Virus record (IMG/VR): IMGVR_UViG_2895055527_000002
Span: 17,917-81,916 of that record
DNA: 64,000 bases
Source: a virus
Lineage: Duplodnaviria; Caudoviricetes
Strand: one strand, 5' to 3'
The number at the start of each line of letters is the position of its first letter. Within the stretch, counting starts at the first letter, position 1. Positions 1 through 8,106 of this stretch are shown here, in pieces. The translations under genes were made by a program, and so were the position numbers. The notes under the pieces were generated by a model, which was not told where the DNA came from, made no database searches, and saw only the letters and a program-made list of their open reading frames with translations.

Positions 1-1135
1 CACACACTATCAGCGGTACGGTGTTCGCATAAAAGCGGGTGTATATGAGGAAACGCCGATAGATGGCCAAATTGCCTGTGGGCTTCTTTTCGTTAGCTTG
101 CTGCCCTGGATAGTTGTATGGATGCCTTTTGATATCTGTACGAAAAACGCTGTCAACGGAATGGATAAAACCCAACATTCCATGAAGCTTCGCCGGCGTT
201 CCTTCTTCCTCGAACGTCTGTAGTTTGCCATGCACGTCAGGGACTTGGCGTTTGACTGTGTATTTGCCGTTCTTGACAAGGGACGCCACGTAAGCCCGCA
301 CGAGATACCTATACTCGGTGCTGACGTTTACCTTCTTGTTCACGACGAGTCCCGTGACCTGTTGTCTGGAGTCTCGATATTGCATTCGGGTTTTCTTCTC
401 GTTGATTGAGAAGCCGCTTCGCAAAATCAGTCGCTGGAGTTCTGCTCCGACGTGCCAGCTGTGTTCTTTGGAGTCATCACGATACGCAATCGCCGCGGGA
501 AATACTTCCTTGTTCGTAGAAAACGTGAGGTCGTCGGCGTATCTCGTGTAAGTGCAACCGTGCATCTGGGCTAGCTTGGAAAGGTGCGCATCCAAGATTC
601 CGGCAATCATGTTGGATATGACCGGTGAGCACGGGCTGCCTTGGGGAAGCACCCCATCTCGGCAGGCTATATGGGCGATGGTCGTGGCTACTTTCGCATC
701 AAACGCAAAATATCTATCGTTGATGAGGAATCCTCGGATTCTCTGCCCCGAGATGCTCGGAAAGAAATCCTTGAGGTCAAGATTGAACACGTATCGCCTG
801 TTGCGGTGTGCAGCAGCATTCGTGAGAATGCTTTTTCCCGGACGGAAGCCATGAGAAGCTTTATTAGTTCTCTTGGTCAGCGCGGCAATATCCACGAGAC
901 ATTGTTCCAGCGCAGCAGCAAGTTTGCGTTGTAACGACTTTAACTCGGATGTGGGAGCACAAATATCCCGGCTGCCTCCGCTACTCTTGGGAATCGAAAA
1001 TACGTTATACCTTTCAGGATCTTTCTTGACGTAGAGAAGGTACGTCAGGTCTTGGTGCTTGATGTCAAGAAGCATCGCGAGCTCTGCACGCGATTTGGCG
1101 CCTTGGAACCACTCAAGTGTATTTTTCGGAAGCAT
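1..1135 (-). CDS. Retron reverse transcriptase, Ec67-like RT-TOPRIM fusion (3' part outside window; absent from ORF track)
   Basis: Manual translation from ATG 1135: MLPKNTLEWF...IPKSSGGSRDICAP...SHGF...ILTNAAAH (region X NAxxH)...LDLKDFFPSI...LPQGSPCSPVISN...YTRYADDLTFS...QQVTGLVVN (region Y VTG)...RFYANTVPLIVC. Open to base 1. Confidence 0.95.
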   Translation of the reverse strand, partial: MLPKNTLEWFQGAKSRAELAMLLDIKHQDLTYLLYVKKDPERYNVFSIPKSSGGSRDICAPTSELKSLQRKLAAALEQCLVDIAALTKRTNKASHGFRPGKSILTNAAAHRNRRYVFNLDLKDFFPSISGQRIRGFLINDRYFAFDAKVATTIAHIACRDGVLPQGSPCSPVISNMIAGILDAHLSKLAQMHGCTYTRYADDLTFSTNKEVFPAAIAYRDDSKEHSWHVGAELQRLILRSGFSINEKKTRMQYRDSRQQVTGLVVNKKVNVSTEYRYLVRAYVASLVKNGKYTVKRQVPDVHGKLQTFEEEGTPAKLHGMLGFIHSVDSVFRTDIKRHPYNYPGQQANEKKPTGNLAIYRRFLIYTRFYANTVPLIVC

Positions 1136-1146
1136 TTAGATAGAGA

Positions 1147-1277
1147 GCCCCGTAGACACTCCAACGCGTATTGGCTCCTGCTCCACATGGCGCCAATCAG
1201 GTTGATATCGATGCAGCATAGGTCCTAACATTGTTGTCAAGTGCCATGATTCATGGCAGAAATTCTGTCTACGAGGC
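1147..1277 (-). ncRNA. Retron msr-msd RNA
   Basis: a1/a2 inverted repeat at 1147-1158 and 1266-1277 (11/12 match). Putative branching G at 1265. msr hairpin TGCCAT-GAATC-ATGGCA. msd stem CAAC..ATTGGC..GCCAAT..GTTG. Ends 11 nt before the RT ATG. Confidence 0.88.
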
Positions 1278-1284
1278 GACTCCG

Positions 1285-1293
1285 ATAATATCA
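1285..1293 (-). promoter_or_regulatory. Extended -10 promoter for the retron
   Basis: TGATATTAT (TGn-TATTAT) on the minus strand, 7 nt upstream of a1. Confidence 0.55.
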
Positions 1294-1552
1294 AAGTGCT
1301 CTCCGACTCGACAGCAGCATCTCATCTCTTGCGTTGTGCTGTAGCTGCGGGAGTTGCGTTGGATTTGCTCTTGAGTTAGATTCGCTTCTGCGTCGCAGAA
1401 CGTCGGCGCGCTGCCCACCCCTTGGGGCTTTCCGGCCGCAGTCAAGCTTTCGCATCGTTCCAAATCCAATCTTCAAAATATCTGAACCCGGTCTCCGGGC
1501 GTCAGAGAATTCGGGTGGGCGTCTCTGACGGAACTCTAAGGAGTGACGGAAC

Positions 1553-3205
1553 GTGGACACATCCGATTTTCATTTTCTCGACGCCAAGCACAAGGTAGAG
1601 CGGCAGGCTCGACGTCTTCAAAAGCATCTAAACGTGCGTCTTCGTGTCGCGCGTGCCGTGCTGGCTGAGGGGCCGTACCAATGTAAGAGTTGGGAAAGCC
1701 TTCTCGCGCGACTCGCTTGTCCAACAACACATATCAGAATGTTGGCATCACTACCTGGTGACAACAGGGCCGAGCACTATTTGTCTGCAAATTTGGACGG
1801 CATTGCCCGGTCCATTGCCCAGCAAATAATGCCTAACACCAATCTTGCCGGCCTTTACGACATTGTGAGGAAAATGTTCCTCGCGAATTGTGCCCCGACA
1901 ACGCTTGAGCATGTCGCGCCGTCACTCCCCCCACTTGCGTGGGAGCCTGCGAATCTTGGTCCCGATGCCTACGCGGTGATGTATGCAAATGCGAACGTGA
2001 ACGGCAATGCATTCCGAGTAGTCGCTACGCGAACTTACCTGCCAGATTATCTCGACTTCGGCGCCGAAGTGGACCACCCGGAATTAGCCTATCCGGTTGG
2101 GAAGTTCAAAATTGTCTGGACTAACCCCGACGCGTGGCTGGATGCGGCACGAACTTATCTTTTTGCCCCCAAAGATGAGTGGGATGTCGATCTGGCTCTC
2201 CCGGAAGAAATTCTCGACGAACATATGGCCGCTCATGAGCGGTGGTTCACGAAAGCCCTGGCGACAATGCCTTACCGGGGCGAGTACAGTGAAGAACTCA
2301 ACGAGCGTCCCATTCCATACTTTTACAGGGGGGACGCATACTTGCTCTTTGGCCTCCCCACGGTCGGGGGGGTGAACCGGAAGGCACCTAACCTCGAAGT
2401 AGAAATTTCGGCATCGGATGCCAACGGGGGCAAGCTGTTTTCCGTGGAAGGTGTGCCAATGTTGCTCGAATGGAGTAAAGCGCAAGCCGAATTGGGCGAT
2501 GACATCGGAGAGCATCGATTGGCAAACACGTTTGTTGATGCAATCGCCTCGGACTCAATCAGTATGTGCTTTGATGTGGGGCGCACGGACGTTGGTCCCT
2601 CAATCCTCATGCGACCGGCATGCGGTACCGATATCCGCCTTGCCTTGAAGCTTGAGCTGATGCCAACTGCGGGAGAGGAGGCCTTCGTACTTCGGAGTGA
2701 TTCCCCGGAACTTGCTGAGATACTCGTCGCGAAGATTGCTGCGCGGCAAATACTGGTCGATAGAACGGTTGCCGCTTGTCCCCGTTATGCCGTTGCGTTG
2801 AGGCTTCCGAGAAATGTAAGGGGACTTCTTCAAGTCGGTCTGGAAGTTCGGATGAATAAGGCTGAAGGTGTACGTTCGAATCTCATTCCGACAACATACA
2901 TCGAGGTGATCGATGACGATTGGGCGATGGTCTACTTCCCTCTGGGCATCACTCTTCTGGCGTTACTCGAGGCACTCGGCAAGTGGGCGCTAATAGATGC
3001 TGTCGTTGACGGCAGGGTCATCCGGCGACCAATTGGTTTTGAGGCTAGCCTAGCGAATGAACCAGCTTGGACGAAAAACCTTCTAGACTCAGGCCTGAAT
3101 TTCGACGCAATGTTTTGCGGAGGCAGGAAGATCCCTTTGGGTCGTACCGCCTACGAGTTGCTCCGAACGGCAAGAGTCACTAAGTACGCACGCGACTTCT
3201 ACTGA
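1553..3205 (+). CDS. Hypothetical 550-aa protein with a small N-terminal helical (HTH-like) domain
   Basis: Long ORF with AAGGAG RBS at 1538-1543. No catalytic motif recognised. Confidence 0.8.
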   Translation: MDTSDFHFLDAKHKVERQARRLQKHLNVRLRVARAVLAEGPYQCKSWESLLARLACPTTHIRMLASLPGDNRAEHYLSANLDGIARSIAQQIMPNTNLAGLYDIVRKMFLANCAPTTLEHVAPSLPPLAWEPANLGPDAYAVMYANANVNGNAFRVVATRTYLPDYLDFGAEVDHPELAYPVGKFKIVWTNPDAWLDAARTYLFAPKDEWDVDLALPEEILDEHMAAHERWFTKALATMPYRGEYSEELNERPIPYFYRGDAYLLFGLPTVGGVNRKAPNLEVEISASDANGGKLFSVEGVPMLLEWSKAQAELGDDIGEHRLANTFVDAIASDSISMCFDVGRTDVGPSILMRPACGTDIRLALKLELMPTAGEEAFVLRSDSPELAEILVAKIAARQILVDRTVAACPRYAVALRLPRNVRGLLQVGLEVRMNKAEGVRSNLIPTTYIEVIDDDWAMVYFPLGITLLALLEALGKWALIDAVVDGRVIRRPIGFEASLANEPAWTKNLLDSGLNFDAMFCGGRKIPLGRTAYELLRTARVTKYARDFY

Positions 3206-3751: not shown

Positions 3752-4987
3752 TCATCGCCTTTGCCGCCGATGGCGTTCCAAATACATCGAGTAATGCTTG
3801 TCGAGCGCGTCCGCAGCAGGTGCATCTTTGAAGCGCTCCGGCACAACCGCAAGTGACTTTCCATCGTACTTCTCATAGTCGGTCCCTCGGAGTTGTGGCG
3901 CGACATGGACGATACTTCGTGAGTCGATGGACAACAGATGGAGGTCAAACAGTGTATGAATGTCTGCTCTGAGCAGAAGTCCATTATGCACGTTGTAGTC
4001 CGTCAGACGCGAGTGTGGAACGATATGCGCCGCTTCCAGCAGTTCTTCAATCCGTGAACCGGTGACTGCACATCGCGTCCGATACGCGGTCAATAGGGCG
4101 CGCCGGAATTTAACCTGACCACGGCGTGTCTTGATGGCGCGATTCTGGACTTCGTCGTAGGTGCTATCTTCGTCGTCGGCTTGCTCAACGGTATTGTCTT
4201 CGAGCGTCTTTTCAATTCCACGTACGAGCACGCACTCTCCGTTGGAGAAGTCGTAAGAGTGCACATACCACTCCTGGCCATCCAGATAGCGCTTTTCAAC
4301 CTTAGCTGCTTGTTCAGCCCGGTCTTCGCCCTCGGGCCGCCTTCCCGCCCCAACGATCACTCGCACCGGAAGTCGCCGCTCAAAAGACTCTCGGATAGCA
4401 ACGTCCAGTGCTTTTCCACGTTGAGCTTGTGTCTTCGCTCGGTTGCGCACGTTTTTTTCTATCGCAAGGTCGGTGGCGATTCTGGTCCGCTGATCGCTCT
4501 CGGCGCGAGCGTTCCGGTCAAAATAGATCCAACCGTCTTCGTTGACCTTGAATTCGCTATGCCACAGACAAAGAACGAAGCCTTCGGTCACGGACCCGAA
4601 GCACCACTCGTAGCAAAAATTTGGATTCGACTTGAAGTCTTCATTCCAGCCGTCAATCGATACCCCCGCGTCTCGGAGAAGATCGTAAAGTGTGCCTTTC
4701 GATAACGGCTTGAGGCTCTCAAGTGACTCTGTAGGAGGAGCATCCGCGCGTCTAAACGTGACGAGTCGGTTGACTTGGTCAAGCCTCACCTGCCTCCAGC
4801 CGTATTCCATCCAAAATTGACCTGGGTGACCATCCTTAGTCCTTGAATTTGCCCAGAATGGCTTGAACCGATCAGCCGTTGGTGGCAATTCGTTGCCGAT
4901 AATTTTCTCTATATCGGAAAACGAGAGTGTTACTTCACTGTTGGATTGTGCAGCCAAGTGAGCTGCAAGAGGCTGATATTTTCTCAT
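3752..4987 (-). CDS. HNH endonuclease with N-terminal accessory domains (restriction-like)
   Basis: C-terminal RRGQVKFR..CAVTG..LEAAHIVP..NGLLLRADIHTLFD (HNH_2 type). Confidence 0.9.
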   Translation of the reverse strand: MRKYQPLAAHLAAQSNSEVTLSFSDIEKIIGNELPPTADRFKPFWANSRTKDGHPGQFWMEYGWRQVRLDQVNRLVTFRRADAPPTESLESLKPLSKGTLYDLLRDAGVSIDGWNEDFKSNPNFCYEWCFGSVTEGFVLCLWHSEFKVNEDGWIYFDRNARAESDQRTRIATDLAIEKNVRNRAKTQAQRGKALDVAIRESFERRLPVRVIVGAGRRPEGEDRAEQAAKVEKRYLDGQEWYVHSYDFSNGECVLVRGIEKTLEDNTVEQADDEDSTYDEVQNRAIKTRRGQVKFRRALLTAYRTRCAVTGSRIEELLEAAHIVPHSRLTDYNVHNGLLLRADIHTLFDLHLLSIDSRSIVHVAPQLRGTDYEKYDGKSLAVVPERFKDAPAADALDKHYSMYLERHRRQRR

Positions 4988-6503: not shown

Positions 6504-6920
6504 TTATTCGAAAATGCCATGAACCGTGCCAGCATTTTCTAATACTCGTTTTTCCAAAAATCGCTTTAGTCTGCGTTCGATCCTGGCGTGTCCGATCGAA
6601 CCTATCAGATGTCGCAGCATTGCGTCGTCGTCAGGCTGAAGCTCCCCTTTAGTGCGCTCATGATTTAGTTCGGGTCGGAAGATCCGAATGCACGCTTCCT
6701 CATATGCTTGAAGATGTAGCAGGTCGGTTGGCACGAACATCACGTCATCGAACTCTTTGACATTGATGTGTTGGCCGAGTCGTTGGTAGATGTCTTCTGT
6801 CTTTCCTACGTACCTTATCCGCTCGCGCAACAGTAGGAAGTAAATTCCTCGCCGGTTTCGCAAAATCGGGATGTGCTTTAGCCCTGCGTCTTCAAGAAAC
6901 TTTTTTTCTTGCATCTTCAA
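6504..6920 (-). CDS. GIY-YIG nuclease family protein
   Basis: GIYFL..RYVGKTE..RLGQH..E..PELN; overlaps the integrase 3' end. Confidence 0.8.
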   Translation of the reverse strand: MKMQEKKFLEDAGLKHIPILRNRRGIYFLLLRERIRYVGKTEDIYQRLGQHINVKEFDDVMFVPTDLLHLQAYEEACIRIFRPELNHERTKGELQPDDDAMLRHLIGSIGHARIERRLKRFLEKRVLENAGTVHGIFE

Positions 6921-8106
6921 TAGCTTGTTGTGAGTGGTTTCCGAACTTCTTCACGGCCTTATTCCCCGCTTCCACGTCCGCTGCCGGCATCCACCGTCCG
7001 TATACTCGCGCGATCATCGTCCAGTCCGCGTGCCCCATCTGCTTTGCAACCCACATCGGGTGTTCGCCCGCCGAAAGCATCATCGAAGCATAGGTGTGCC
7101 GGGTCTGATACGGATTGCGGTAGCGTACGCCAGCCCTTTTGAGAGCGGATTGCCAAATGCGCCAGATCTGATTGGCGCCGGTAAAGCGCGCTCCCGACCG
7201 ATCCTTAAAAATTGCGCCGTCTTCTTCGGACAGGAAGGTCAGTGCCTTTTGCGCATGAAGGGCGGCGCTCGCTGGCTCAAGCAACCGGATGTCGCGCCGA
7301 CCCGCCGCAGTCTTCGGGAATTCGGCGACGCCTTTCGCCTCGCGCGTCATCGCGCGACGTACGCGGACGTATCCTCCAACGAAATCGATGTCCGACCAGT
7401 TGAGAGCGATGAACTCCGAGGTGCGCATCCCGGTCCAGAGCGCAAACTGGATCAGATTTCGATTCCCTCCCGTCAGTTTATCGAGAATAGCGGCTTGCTC
7501 TTGAGGGGAAAGCGGATCGATCTCGTCTTCTTCGATTTCCTTCGGCCGTTCAGCGCGTGCGTAGGTATAACCTGCGAGTGGATTCGCCTCGATTAATTCG
7601 TCTCCTGACGCGTCGCCGAGCGCCGATCGCATGCAGCTTTGGATATTCGCCAGTCGCTTGTTGGAAGCCTTGCGCTCGCGGTCGTGGTCGATTCCGGCGA
7701 GCCAGTCTCTGATAGTCGCGCGCCGGAGATCCGAAAGGGGCAGCTTACCGAATTTCGGGATAACCCAATTGCTCACGATGTTTCGGTATCCCGTGAATGT
7801 TGATGCCTTGATCTCCATCTTCTTCCGGTCTAGCCACTTCTCGAAATACGATTCAACGGTTAGGACGTCACCAGGGCGTTCTGCAAATTTTGCTGCATGC
7901 TTTGAGTCCGGGAACGACTTCACATAGTCAAACTCGCCTTTCTCTATTGCGTGCAGAATCGCGGCCCGGAACTGCGTTATCTTGCGAGTGTTGGCAGGAC
8001 AGGGCTTCGCTTTGATCCGCTCGCGGCACCGCCGCCCTTGGTAATGGAAGGTGATTTCATAGCTGGAGTCTGAAACGATGTCGACTCCTGTCCTCTTTCT
8101 AGCCAT
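6892..8106 (-). CDS. int: Tyrosine integrase with arm-binding domain
   Basis: TGMRTSE, PKT, YQTRHTYAS, MGH, VYG catalytic motifs. Confidence 0.95.
   Translation of the reverse strand: MARKRTGVDIVSDSSYEITFHYQGRRCRERIKAKPCPANTRKITQFRAAILHAIEKGEFDYVKSFPDSKHAAKFAERPGDVLTVESYFEKWLDRKKMEIKASTFTGYRNIVSNWVIPKFGKLPLSDLRRATIRDWLAGIDHDRERKASNKRLANIQSCMRSALGDASGDELIEANPLAGYTYARAERPKEIEEDEIDPLSPQEQAAILDKLTGGNRNLIQFALWTGMRTSEFIALNWSDIDFVGGYVRVRRAMTREAKGVAEFPKTAAGRRDIRLLEPASAALHAQKALTFLSEEDGAIFKDRSGARFTGANQIWRIWQSALKRAGVRYRNPYQTRHTYASMMLSAGEHPMWVAKQMGHADWTMIARVYGRWMPAADVEAGNKAVKKFGNHSQQAIEDARKKVS

Follow-up and report, generated by a model that had tools for sequence, protein, structure and literature searches.

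An intact type I-C retron of the Ec67/Retron-Eco2 family very probably lies in a low-GC defence island of Burkholderiaceae

The left end of the window (the whole stretch of DNA that was analysed, 64,000 nt) carries on its minus strand a gene for a reverse transcriptase (RT) fused to a TOPRIM domain. As judged from ORF reading and profile matches, the N-terminal 378 of its 601 codons occupy positions 1..1135 (whole codons 2..1135). The frame begins with an ATG, whose assignment as the start is unambiguous because an in-frame TAA immediately precedes it, and is still open at the left window edge. We found that it continues without interruption for another ~668–669 nt to G000:C1:227266, yielding a full ORF of 601 aa. 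The part inside the window contains the RT motifs NAAAH at residue 106, YADD at 199 and VTG at 260, which line up with their counterparts in six relatives; NAxxH and VTG are signatures of retron RTs. The initial annotation of the window had reported this 378-codon frame and its motifs correctly and had taken the string FYANTVPLIVC(E) at the window edge for the beginning of a TOPRIM domain. Residues 368–378 of this string are indeed the last ones inside the window, and instead of an early stop we observed 223 further codons outside it with the TOPRIM motifs EGKTD (from E379 to 383) and DND (D478-N-D480), so that all catalytic residues of the TOPRIM domain are located beyond the edge. The gene had also been described as missed by the ORF track: it is real, but it was hidden solely because the window edge cuts the ORF, and standard annotation of the complete contig would identify it.

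In a profile comparison of the whole protein, it matched the PDB chains of Retron Ec67 (9i2f/9lm3) with an E value of 3.1e-108 (residues 6–592 vs. 6–580). The PADLOC profile RT-Toprim_I-C (PDLC02966) was hit with E 6e-202 over profile positions 6–557 of 568, and the NCBIfam model NF038237 (“retron Ec67 family RNA-directed DNA polymerase/endonuclease”) with 661.4 bits over model positions 2–572 of 572, the curated cut-off of this model being 450 bits; each of the other NCBIfam RT families stayed under its own cut-off. Because Pfam reported RVT_1 only and no Toprim domain, the TOPRIM call draws on the motifs, on the Ec67 structure and on profiles spanning the full length of the protein. The residues that were mutated in the Eco2 papers (PMC12405507 and PMC12916289) are kept in our alignment, namely YADD at 199–202, E379, G380, D383, D478, D480, S525 and E527, with the TOPRIM residues pairing with E374/G375/D378/D460/D462 and S513/E515 of Eco2. 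The catalytic lysine named K562 in PMC12405507 was not mappable, position 562 being D by the numbering of the chain and in every protein of the alignment. The integrity of the gene, its membership of the Ec67/Eco2 family and the conservation of its catalytic residues are established by these data.

According to Mestre et al. 2020 (PMC7736814), type I-C is defined by the TOPRIM motifs EGxxD (motif IV) and DxD (motif V), the I-C2 and I-C3 retrons carry a TOPRIM domain with EGxxD fused C-terminally to the RT, and a DxE in place of motif V DxD is the defining feature of I-C2. By this definition, the protein is not an I-C2 representative because it shows DND in motif V. The best PADLOC sub-models were identical for our protein and the Ec67-like E. 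coli protein, which suggests an assignment to I-C1, the motifs themselves not separating I-C1 from I-C3. Related RT domains occur in the single-protein fusions of types XI (RT-protease) and XII (RT-TIR), whose PADLOC matches (E ~1e-100, residues 7–329) end with the RT domain, whereas the C-terminal domain is here a TOPRIM instead of a protease or TIR domain. Retron-Eco8 (type I-B2) and the OLD-family TOPRIM nucleases would share with the protein a TOPRIM two-metal nuclease effector under msDNA control, as described for Eco8 (PMC12916289), but the TOPRIM domain of Eco8 resides on a separate ATPase-TOPRIM (OLD) protein which cuts DNA, and the Eco8 RT is only distantly similar (E 5e-5).

Immediately upstream of the gene, separated from it by 11 nt and on the same strand, lies a 131-nt element (1147..1277, minus strand) which we assign to a retron ncRNA (msr-msd) on the basis of covariance model R1 (see below) and of homologues upstream of other RT genes. 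It is closed by an inverted repeat of 12 nt, as proposed in the initial annotation: the a1 arm GCCUCGUAGACA (1266..1277, minus) is also supported by pair conservation, and the a2 arm UGUCUACGGGGC (1147..1158, minus) by the alignment, in which a family-invariant GAG precedes it. The arms are 107 nt apart and complementary at 11 of 12 positions as DNA, while the mismatched twelfth becomes a G-U pair in RNA. The 151-nt RNA of positions 1140–1290 (minus) folds at −55.5 kcal/mol vs. −41.3 ± 3.6 kcal/mol for shuffled sequences, corresponding to a z-score of −3.96, and none of 200 shuffles folded as well.

Six close relatives have unrelated flanks upstream, but are conserved from the −10 box through the RT start, and we built R1 from their ncRNAs. 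The model recognised the present locus with 147.7 bits (E 6e-35) as the sole match in the 5.8-Mb genome and matched 22 further loci at E ≤ 0.01, in full length and on the RT strand. In addition, it matched four Ec67-family loci that carry an annotation, with E values from 1e-5 to 2e-7, and its reach extends from Burkholderiales to the ncRNAs of E. coli and Sinorhizobium; locus L028 gave an E value of 0.24 only, and R1 had no match in loci L007, L012 and L032, whose RT matches are truncated. Altogether, 26 other loci have an ncRNA homologue preceding the RT gene, in every case on its strand and with −7 to 59 nt between the ncRNA end and the projected RT start. The comparison with retron covariance models suggested in the initial annotation was positive with R1, but negative with Rfam, which listed no retron family at E ≤ 10 in positions 1–3000 of the window. 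An Rfam miRNA entry was rejected as spurious (18 bits vs. a gathering score of 100).

The six close relatives alone contained no two-sided covariation, and 284–313 of 500 shuffles reached the values observed for them. Because this set was uninformative, we extended the analysis to distant loci. In the resulting alignment of 23 sequences, 92.3% of the cells were paired and 21 of 25 pairs showed two-sided change, counts which are inflated because the alignment was fitted to the model structure and its rows are kin. The covariation score amounted to 0.552, compared to values of up to 0.137 with the partners slid, and was not attained by any of 500 shuffles. For the a1/a2 helix, two-sided change was present in 10 of 12 pairs with 97.8% of the cells paired, and RNAalifold independently found both this helix and the msr hairpin. 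As far as sequences can tell, the existence of the ncRNA beyond chance is confirmed, the decisive support being comparative and provided by the covariation.

To place the landmarks of msDNA synthesis, we took those of Eco2 from PMC12405507 and mapped them through the Ec67-like E. coli locus L037, which has an RT aligning to the solved Ec67 chain with E 4e-288 over residues 1–583. The transfer rule consists of the A-G-A branch, the AAU|G stop and the GAG before a2. Applied to L037, it reproduces G15, A16–U19, G20–U42, G43–U51 and G52–A62 of the RNA as well as dT1, dA56, dT57, dC67 and the length of 67 nt of the msDNA. Here, it predicts the branching guanosine providing the 2′-OH primer (equivalent to rG15 of Eco2) at position 1265 (minus), the G right after a1 which had been pointed out in the initial annotation, and the A-G-A around it is unchanged in every one of the 23 aligned ncRNAs. 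The hairpin noted there with a GAAT loop is present as an msr stem-loop at 1242..1258 (minus) with a 7-bp stem and an AAU loop (UGCCAUG-AAU-CAUGGCA), as recognised from the fold and from covariation, with two-sided change in six of seven pairs and 98.1% of the cells paired in the 23 sequences. The adjoining segment at 1230..1241 (minus), ending in a conserved AAU, maps via L037 to the single-stranded msr tail G43–U51 (ssRb) of Eco2 and directly precedes the predicted RT stop. The msd template would then extend over 1160..1229 (minus), and the predicted msDNA corresponds to the plus strand from 1160 to 1229 with a length of 70 nt (5′ TCCAAC ... CCTAAC 3′). These are the same ends as already estimated for an msDNA of about 70 nt, and the branch point and both msDNA termini are placed here by homology.

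An msd stem had been claimed as well. A hairpin core is contained in the sequence (1170–1178/1189–1197, 8 of 9 positions complementary), but its folding is no better than that of shuffled sequences, with z-scores of +0.19 at the present locus and a median of −0.24 over 27 loci, which makes it the weakest-supported element of the ncRNA. Only three of the 27 loci reached z-scores below −2 with mononucleotide shuffles, and we rejected a conserved stable msd stem-loop on these energy values. A second msr hairpin at 1224–1241, which appeared in the minimum free energy fold, was rejected as a conserved helix with 71.2% paired cells across the 23 sequences; we read this segment as single-stranded tail and template end because the Eco2 mapping places it so.

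A candidate extended −10 box (TG-a-TATTAT, 1285..1293, minus), recognised by sequence reading and conservation, stops 7 nt short of a1. All six close relatives have a −10 hexamer that matches at no fewer than 4 of 6 positions, and five of them also share the TG extension. Over 27 loci, a −10-like hexamer of the same quality occurs 4–12 nt before a1 in 22 cases and the TG extension in 18, these counts being biased upward because the best hexamer in the range was taken. Of the promoter postulated in the initial annotation, the sequence thus offers a conserved candidate −10 element; no −35 element was recognisable at the candidate box, and the sigma-70 scan listed no minus-strand promoter. We regard the box as the putative retron promoter at the level of a consensus match. 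A plus-strand sigma-70 site at 1202–1231 was discarded as chance level (1 found, 1.1 expected). A terminator scan of the interval from the RT stop codon to the following gene yielded no clear terminator.

The retron is sporadically distributed, occurring in 13 of 399 genomes of the same family and in one of 37 other genomes of the same genus. In a quick tree, it belongs to a well-supported Burkholderiales clade of 7 rows, which is set apart from the E. coli clade by a long stem of 1.01 changes per column; the relatives in this clade are 65–84% identical. Stops or truncations were noted in the relatives L007, L012, L028, L029 and L033. Among sequencing runs, a single DNA data set, which may be the source assembly itself, was listed for the locus, and none from RNA. 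The retron is situated in a defence island with Hachiman, ThsB-like TIR and HNH genes inside a low-GC island of ~135 kb, and this low-GC DNA is horizontally acquired. A literature search for type I-C retrons of Pandoraea or Burkholderia retrieved incidental mentions, but no specific paper.

The neighbouring genes, coding for proteins of 550 aa, 411 aa and 122 aa, had no tblastn match in 35 related loci with flanks of 1.5–3 kb, and we rejected a conserved partner gene on this account. The retron therefore has a stand-alone architecture with one protein gene and without a conserved accessory effector gene. The divergent 550-aa ORF, whose family has 57 relatives, belongs to no Pfam, PADLOC or NCBIfam family, a word-index search returned only itself, and neither the Atlas search nor the metagenome scan gave a match. 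Its PDB profile search revealed nothing below E 0.2, and Foldseek with the whole folded protein found nothing at E ≤ 0.001 in PDB and BFVD; the best VIA-align match (Z 5.3, residues 1–111 only) lies under the noise level stated for the tool.

The protein profiles, the TOPRIM motifs, and the homology and covariation of the ncRNA all support the Ec67-type retron which the initial annotation had placed at 1–1293, and we are confident that the locus represents an intact type I-C retron of the Ec67/Retron-Eco2 family, consisting of the 131-nt msr-msd ncRNA and the 601-aa RT-TOPRIM gene. It shares with Retron-Eco2 of E. coli (Ec67, type I-C1; PDB 9I2F/9I2G/9S1F and 9LM3) the single-gene RT-TOPRIM fusion of ~590–600 aa with the NAxxH, YADD, VTG, EGxxD and DxD motifs, the ncRNA directly preceding the gene in the same orientation, the a1/a2 closing duplex, the A-G-A branching G, one msr stem-loop, the AAU|G stop context, the best PADLOC sub-model and the NCBIfam family; the predicted msDNA of 70 nt is close to the 67 nt of Eco2. 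In contrast, the protein is only 37.9% identical to the Ec67-like protein, the msr forms a 17-nt hairpin instead of a 23-nt stem-loop, and the linker after the branching G comprises 6 instead of 4 nt. The TOPRIM domain contains a 12-residue insertion, and the region opposite the trimer-contact loop of Eco2 (residues 325–347) is shorter, divergent and gapped. Whereas E. coli copies occupy a P2-like prophage slot, the present copy resides in a chromosomal defence island of Burkholderiaceae.

By homology with Eco2, a transcript whose 5′ end lies at a1 or shortly before it would fold through the a1/a2 duplex, and the RT would prime on the 2′-OH of the G at 1265 and copy the msd template, beginning at the A at 1160 and ending at the G at 1229, producing a branched, RNA-linked msDNA of ~70 nt. 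The bound msDNA may keep the TOPRIM nuclease inactive, the Eco2 counterpart being a 3:3 trimeric cage held by msDNA. Degradation of the msDNA by a phage nuclease would free the TOPRIM domain, which would then cut cellular RNA (tRNA acceptor stems in the case of Eco2), leading to a halt of translation and abortion of the infection. For the retron studied here, trimer caging, triggering and RNA targeting are inferred from Eco2, and the caging in particular may not be transferable because of the 12-residue TOPRIM insertion and the gaps at the trimer-contact loop.

It is possible, if rather unlikely, that the locus is a genuine type I-C retron to which the mechanistic details of Eco2 do not apply, and which has another assembly, a trigger not of the DenB/A1 type or another RNA or DNA substrate. 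The low protein identity, the separate clade on its long stem and the changes in the TOPRIM and trimer-contact regions point in this direction, and these hosts have other phages than the T-even and T5 phages with which Eco2 was studied. However, every mapped catalytic residue is retained, the ncRNA architecture with its branch and AAU|G stop contexts is conserved from the clade to E. coli, and the best PADLOC sub-model is shared with the Ec67-like proteins. Given the long stem, the TOPRIM insertion and the divergent trimer-contact region, the Burkholderiales clade could also, as a distinctly improbable extension, be a functionally distinct I-C lineage that differs from Eco2 in its assembly, trigger or substrate. 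Very little speaks for an inactive relic with conserved ORF and ncRNA sequences that has lost expression or function in its host: the missing canonical −35 and the horizontally acquired low-GC surroundings would fit, but the 601-codon frame and its mapped catalytic residues are intact, as are the a1/a2 helix and the branching G, the −10 box is conserved among close relatives, and decay is instead visible in the five relatives with stops or truncations. Another class of bacterial RT (group II intron, DRT/UG or Abi) with a structured but unrelated 5′ leader, as the generic RVT_1 match of Pfam alone might allow, is effectively refuted by the scores of the group II intron RT/maturase (66 bits, cut-off 300), Drt2 (32, cut-off 390) and Drt3a (27, cut-off 200) models compared to the 661 bits of the Ec67-fusion model (cut-off 450), and by the homology of the upstream RNA to that of loci with an RT almost matching the solved Ec67 chain.

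The intact Ec67/Eco2-type retron is therefore real, but an ordinary addition to a well-studied family. It provides a clean, intact I-C example from a Burkholderiaceae defence island at ~38% identity to the E. coli model, and R1 supplies a covariance model of the I-C ncRNA, an RNA that escapes detection by Rfam. The landmark rule, which reproduces the published 67-nt Ec67 msDNA, predicts msDNA ends in new loci and could help retron-based editing tools. If the Burkholderiales clade were indeed a distinct I-C lineage, it would reveal the range over which the “msDNA cage” mechanism holds.

On sequence grounds, the left edge of the window holds a genuine and intact type I-C (Ec67/Eco2-family) retron, a member of a known family consisting of an RT-TOPRIM gene and its ncRNA. 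The gene appears on the minus strand as a 378-codon frame (2 to 1135), which starts with an ATG directly preceded by an in-frame TAA, contains the motifs NAAAH at residue 106, YADD at 199 and VTG at 260, and is still open at the window edge after the residues FYANTVPLIVC. The window corresponds to G000:C1:227934-291933 (contig C1 of the source genome G000). The contig extends further left, and the complete ORF codes for a protein of 601 aa (P0001; G000:C1:227266-229068, minus strand). Just past the edge it continues as VC-EGKTD-GVY and later as IFIV-DND-SGG, and the TOPRIM domain predicted there by the initial annotation is thus borne out by both motifs, EGKTD and DND, in the leftward-extended frame. 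The same annotation had called the retron gene hidden, which holds only in that the window edge truncates the ORF; there is nothing biologically hidden about it, and an ordinary annotation run on the contig would identify it.

The family assignment was obtained from several profiles. The PADLOC model RT-Toprim_I-C (PDLC02966) matched the 601-aa protein with an E-value of 6e-202, covering positions 6-557 of its 568, the NCBIfam model NF038237 (retron Ec67 family RNA-directed DNA polymerase/endonuclease) scored 661.4 bits (curated cut-off 450), and the solved Retron Ec67 protein (PDB 9i2f, 9lm3) aligned with an E-value of 3.1e-108, residues 6-592 against 6-580. The protein stayed under the respective cut-offs of the NCBIfam models for group II introns, Drt2, Drt3a, St85-type and RT-TIR proteins, and a Pfam search of the full sequence reported RVT_1 alone. 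The window copy is intact, whereas relatives in the related retron loci L007, L012, L028, L029 and L031/L033 are decayed by internal stops or N-terminal truncation.

Upstream of the gene lies a 131-nt element on the same strand, closed by the inverted repeat a1/a2 (1147-1158 and 1266-1277), whose 12-nt arms are complementary at 11 of 12 positions as DNA and at all 12 as RNA via one G-U pair and enclose 107 nt. A G directly follows a1 (1265), and inverted-repeat finding gave a perfect 7-bp hairpin (1242-1258) and a smaller imperfect one (1170-1197). Frame, motifs, element, G and hairpins are all located where the initial annotation had placed them. The 151-nt RNA from 1140 to 1290 folds with -55.5 kcal/mol (z -3.96), a stability reached by none of 200 shuffles. 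A candidate box read from the sequence, TG-a-TATTAT (1285-1293, minus strand), ends 7 nt before a1; a sigma-70 scan listed nothing at this position. Counting the best hexamer within a range, 22 of the 27 loci have a similar box, and 18 of the 27 have the TG extension. We infer that this box is the retron promoter.

Because an Rfam search of the ncRNA gave no match, it was analysed comparatively. A scan of species-representative genomes yielded 11 related loci, among them some with 83-84% identical proteins in named Paraburkholderia and Pandoraea records and others with 65-67% identical ones in Pusillimonas, Paracandidimonas and Cupriavidus; further genome searches gave more. Aligning the upstream regions of six close relatives showed unrelated flanks followed by sharp conservation from a TTTGaTATtAT box to the RT start. 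Within these six, the stems were 95.3% paired with zero two-sided pair changes, and 284-313 of 500 shuffles reached the observed values; covariation was uninformative at this level because the sequences are too alike. The covariance model R1, built from the six ncRNAs, gave exactly one match on the 5.8-Mb genome (E 2e-33) and matched 22 further loci at full length on the RT strand at E<=0.01, while L028 reached merely E 0.24 and L007, L012 and L032, which represent truncated RT matches only, gave none. All 26 other loci with a match have it on the same strand as the RT, and the distance between the end of the match and the projected RT start ranges from -7 to 59 nt.

In the resulting 23-sequence alignment, which was fitted to the model structure and consists of kin, 92.3% of the cells are paired and 21 of 25 pairs show a two-sided change. 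The covariation score of 0.552 compares with 0.252 +/- 0.015 for shuffles (none of 500 reached it) and with at most 0.137 after sliding the 3' partners by 1-3 columns. The a1/a2 helix is 97.8% paired with 10 of 12 pairs covarying, and the msr hairpin is 98.1% paired with 6 of 7; RNAalifold finds both independently. A third proposed helix was rejected, being only 71.2% paired in the same 23 sequences.

For predicting the branch point and msDNA, we used an Ec67-like locus found among complete E. coli genomes (L037), which occupies a P2-like prophage slot flanked by a replication endonuclease/DinI region on one side and the portal gene on the other. The RT encoded there aligns with the solved Ec67 chain at an E-value of 4e-288 (residues 1-583), and R1 recognises its upstream region (E 1.6e-7). 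If its RNA is numbered with the G after a1 as 15, it reproduces every Eco2 RNA landmark printed in the accessible text of two studies (A16-U19, G20-U42, G43-U51 and G52-A62; PMC12405507, PMC12916289). A rule based on three family-conserved contexts, namely the A-G-A branch, a stop between AAU and G, and a template whose first base is the A in the invariant GAG preceding a2, gives an msDNA of 67 nt for this locus, with dT first, dA56, dT57 and dC67 last, as printed for Eco2 in the same accessible text (PMC12405507, PMC12916289). Transferred to the window, the rule places the branching G at 1265 and predicts a 70-nt msDNA corresponding to plus strand 1160-1229, the same ends as those of the approximately 70-nt product proposed initially.

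The msd stem proposed with it is present as the imperfect hairpin at 1170-1197 but is unsupported as a stable hairpin: against mononucleotide shuffles, the msd-region folding energy has a z of +0.19 in the window and +0.91 in L037, with a median of -0.24 over 27 loci and values below -2 in 3 of them. These weak energies agree with the accessible account of Eco2, whose msDNA has no textbook hairpin and forms a three-way junction between subunits (PMC12916289).

Mutations of Eco2 in YADD (199-202) or in the TOPRIM residues E374, D378, D460, D462, S513 and E515 are described in the accessible parts of PMC12405507 and PMC12916289 as abolishing defence or RNase activity. We mapped these residues by aligning the window protein to an Ec67-like E. 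coli protein numbered as in the solved chain; the two are 38% identical, and the window protein keeps YADD at 199-202 as well as E379, G380, D383, D478, D480, S525 and E527. The catalytic lysine that PMC12405507 names K562 could not be placed in the chain numbering: the Ec67 chain alignment has D at position 562, and six relatives have D or S there. The name may refer to a conserved G-K that lies further upstream. Eco2 residue 562 aligns with residue 574 of P0001, outside the window. According to the accessible text of Mestre et al. (PMC7736814), type I-C2 carries DxE in TOPRIM; the EGxxD and DxD motifs found here are therefore compatible with I-C1 or I-C3, and I-C2 is ruled out. The best PADLOC sub-models are identical for the window protein and Ec67-like proteins, which suggests, as far as profile matches go, an assignment to I-C1.

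The whole window lies within a stretch of C1 (about 170.5-305 kb) with 49-61% GC (about 52% in the retron region) against a genome mean of 62.5%. It spans about 135 kb, starts at a tRNA-Leu(tag) gene (C1:170531-170617), and is probably a large genomic island (C1 about 170,500-305,000). In L038, the stretch around the retron reaching left of the window, the left neighbours include an HTH_17 protein, a ThsB-like TIR protein (L038:8403-9386, minus strand; PADLOC ThsB E 5e-120) and a complete Hachiman pair (L038:12648-15595, plus strand, about 4.3-7.3 kb left of the window) of HamA (Pfam E 2.5e-55, PADLOC E 1.5e-114) and the HamB helicase (PADLOC E 1.7e-235). PADLOC detected no ThsA in the 12 other ORFs of L038 that were scanned, and the TIR protein may be a Thoeris component that is orphaned or non-canonical.

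To the right follow a divergent 550-aa ORF, a 411-aa protein with N-terminal DUF7662 and C-terminal HNH_2 nuclease Pfam domains (3752-4987, minus strand), a GIY-YIG-domain ORF (6504-6920, minus strand) and, overlapping it with its 3' end, a tyrosine integrase with Arm-DNA-bind_2 and Phage_integrase domains (6892-8106, minus strand). The 411-aa protein weakly resembles phosphorothioated-DNA-binding restriction endonucleases, scoring 41 bits where the cut-off is 180. Integrase and GIY-YIG ORF (6504-8106) may mark a smaller mobile cassette within the island. The 550-aa ORF (1553-3205, plus strand) diverges from the predicted retron promoter. Its coding signal is good and its ribosome-binding site reads AAGGAG, and it matched no Pfam, PADLOC or NCBIfam family. 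An exhaustive HMMER search retrieved 57 cluster representatives, 33 of them at E<=1e-30 and mostly of about 550 aa, and Pfam gave zero matches on 31 aligned members. AlphaFold predicts its structure with confidence (mean pLDDT 85.8, pTM 0.83); Foldseek against PDB and BFVD returned nothing at E<=0.001, and the top VIA-align Z was 5.3, covering residues 1-111 only. The family is rare, with members in 2 of 377 same-family genomes, is not tied to retrons, being absent from 35 related loci, and looks like an uncharacterised family in a defence island.

All three immediate neighbours of the retron are absent from these 35 loci; the retron is thus a self-contained module, as type I-C is defined in the accessible text of PMC12916289. 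Its distribution is sporadic, with 6 of 401 genomes in a phylum sample, 3 of 401 in the order and 13 of 399 in the family (G000 counted in all three), and one of the 37 other genomes in the genus. A quick tree places it in a strongly supported seven-row Burkholderiales clade that is separate from the one holding E. coli Ec67. As a side observation, the allele type of L034, another E. coli Ec67-family locus (protein vs. solved chain E 4e-188), occurs in 541 of 5426 complete E. coli genomes, in 511 of these at >=99% identity, and all copies are chromosomal.

The window locus provides the parts list only, and its mode of action is modelled on Eco2, for which 2'-OH priming, a 3:3 msDNA cage, triggering by DenB or A1 and nicking of tRNA acceptor stems are described in the accessible parts of PMC12916289 and PMC12405507. 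Given that the window protein is 38% identical to the Ec67-like protein, has 12 residues inserted in TOPRIM and diverges along the trimer-contact stretch, its assembly, trigger and substrate may differ. By analogy, the RT would prime at the 2'-OH of the branching G and then copy the msd, and the msDNA would stay bound and cage the TOPRIM domains as a 3:3 complex. Phage nucleases such as DenB and A1 would initiate msDNA decay, and the released TOPRIM would nick tRNA acceptor stems and thereby stop translation.
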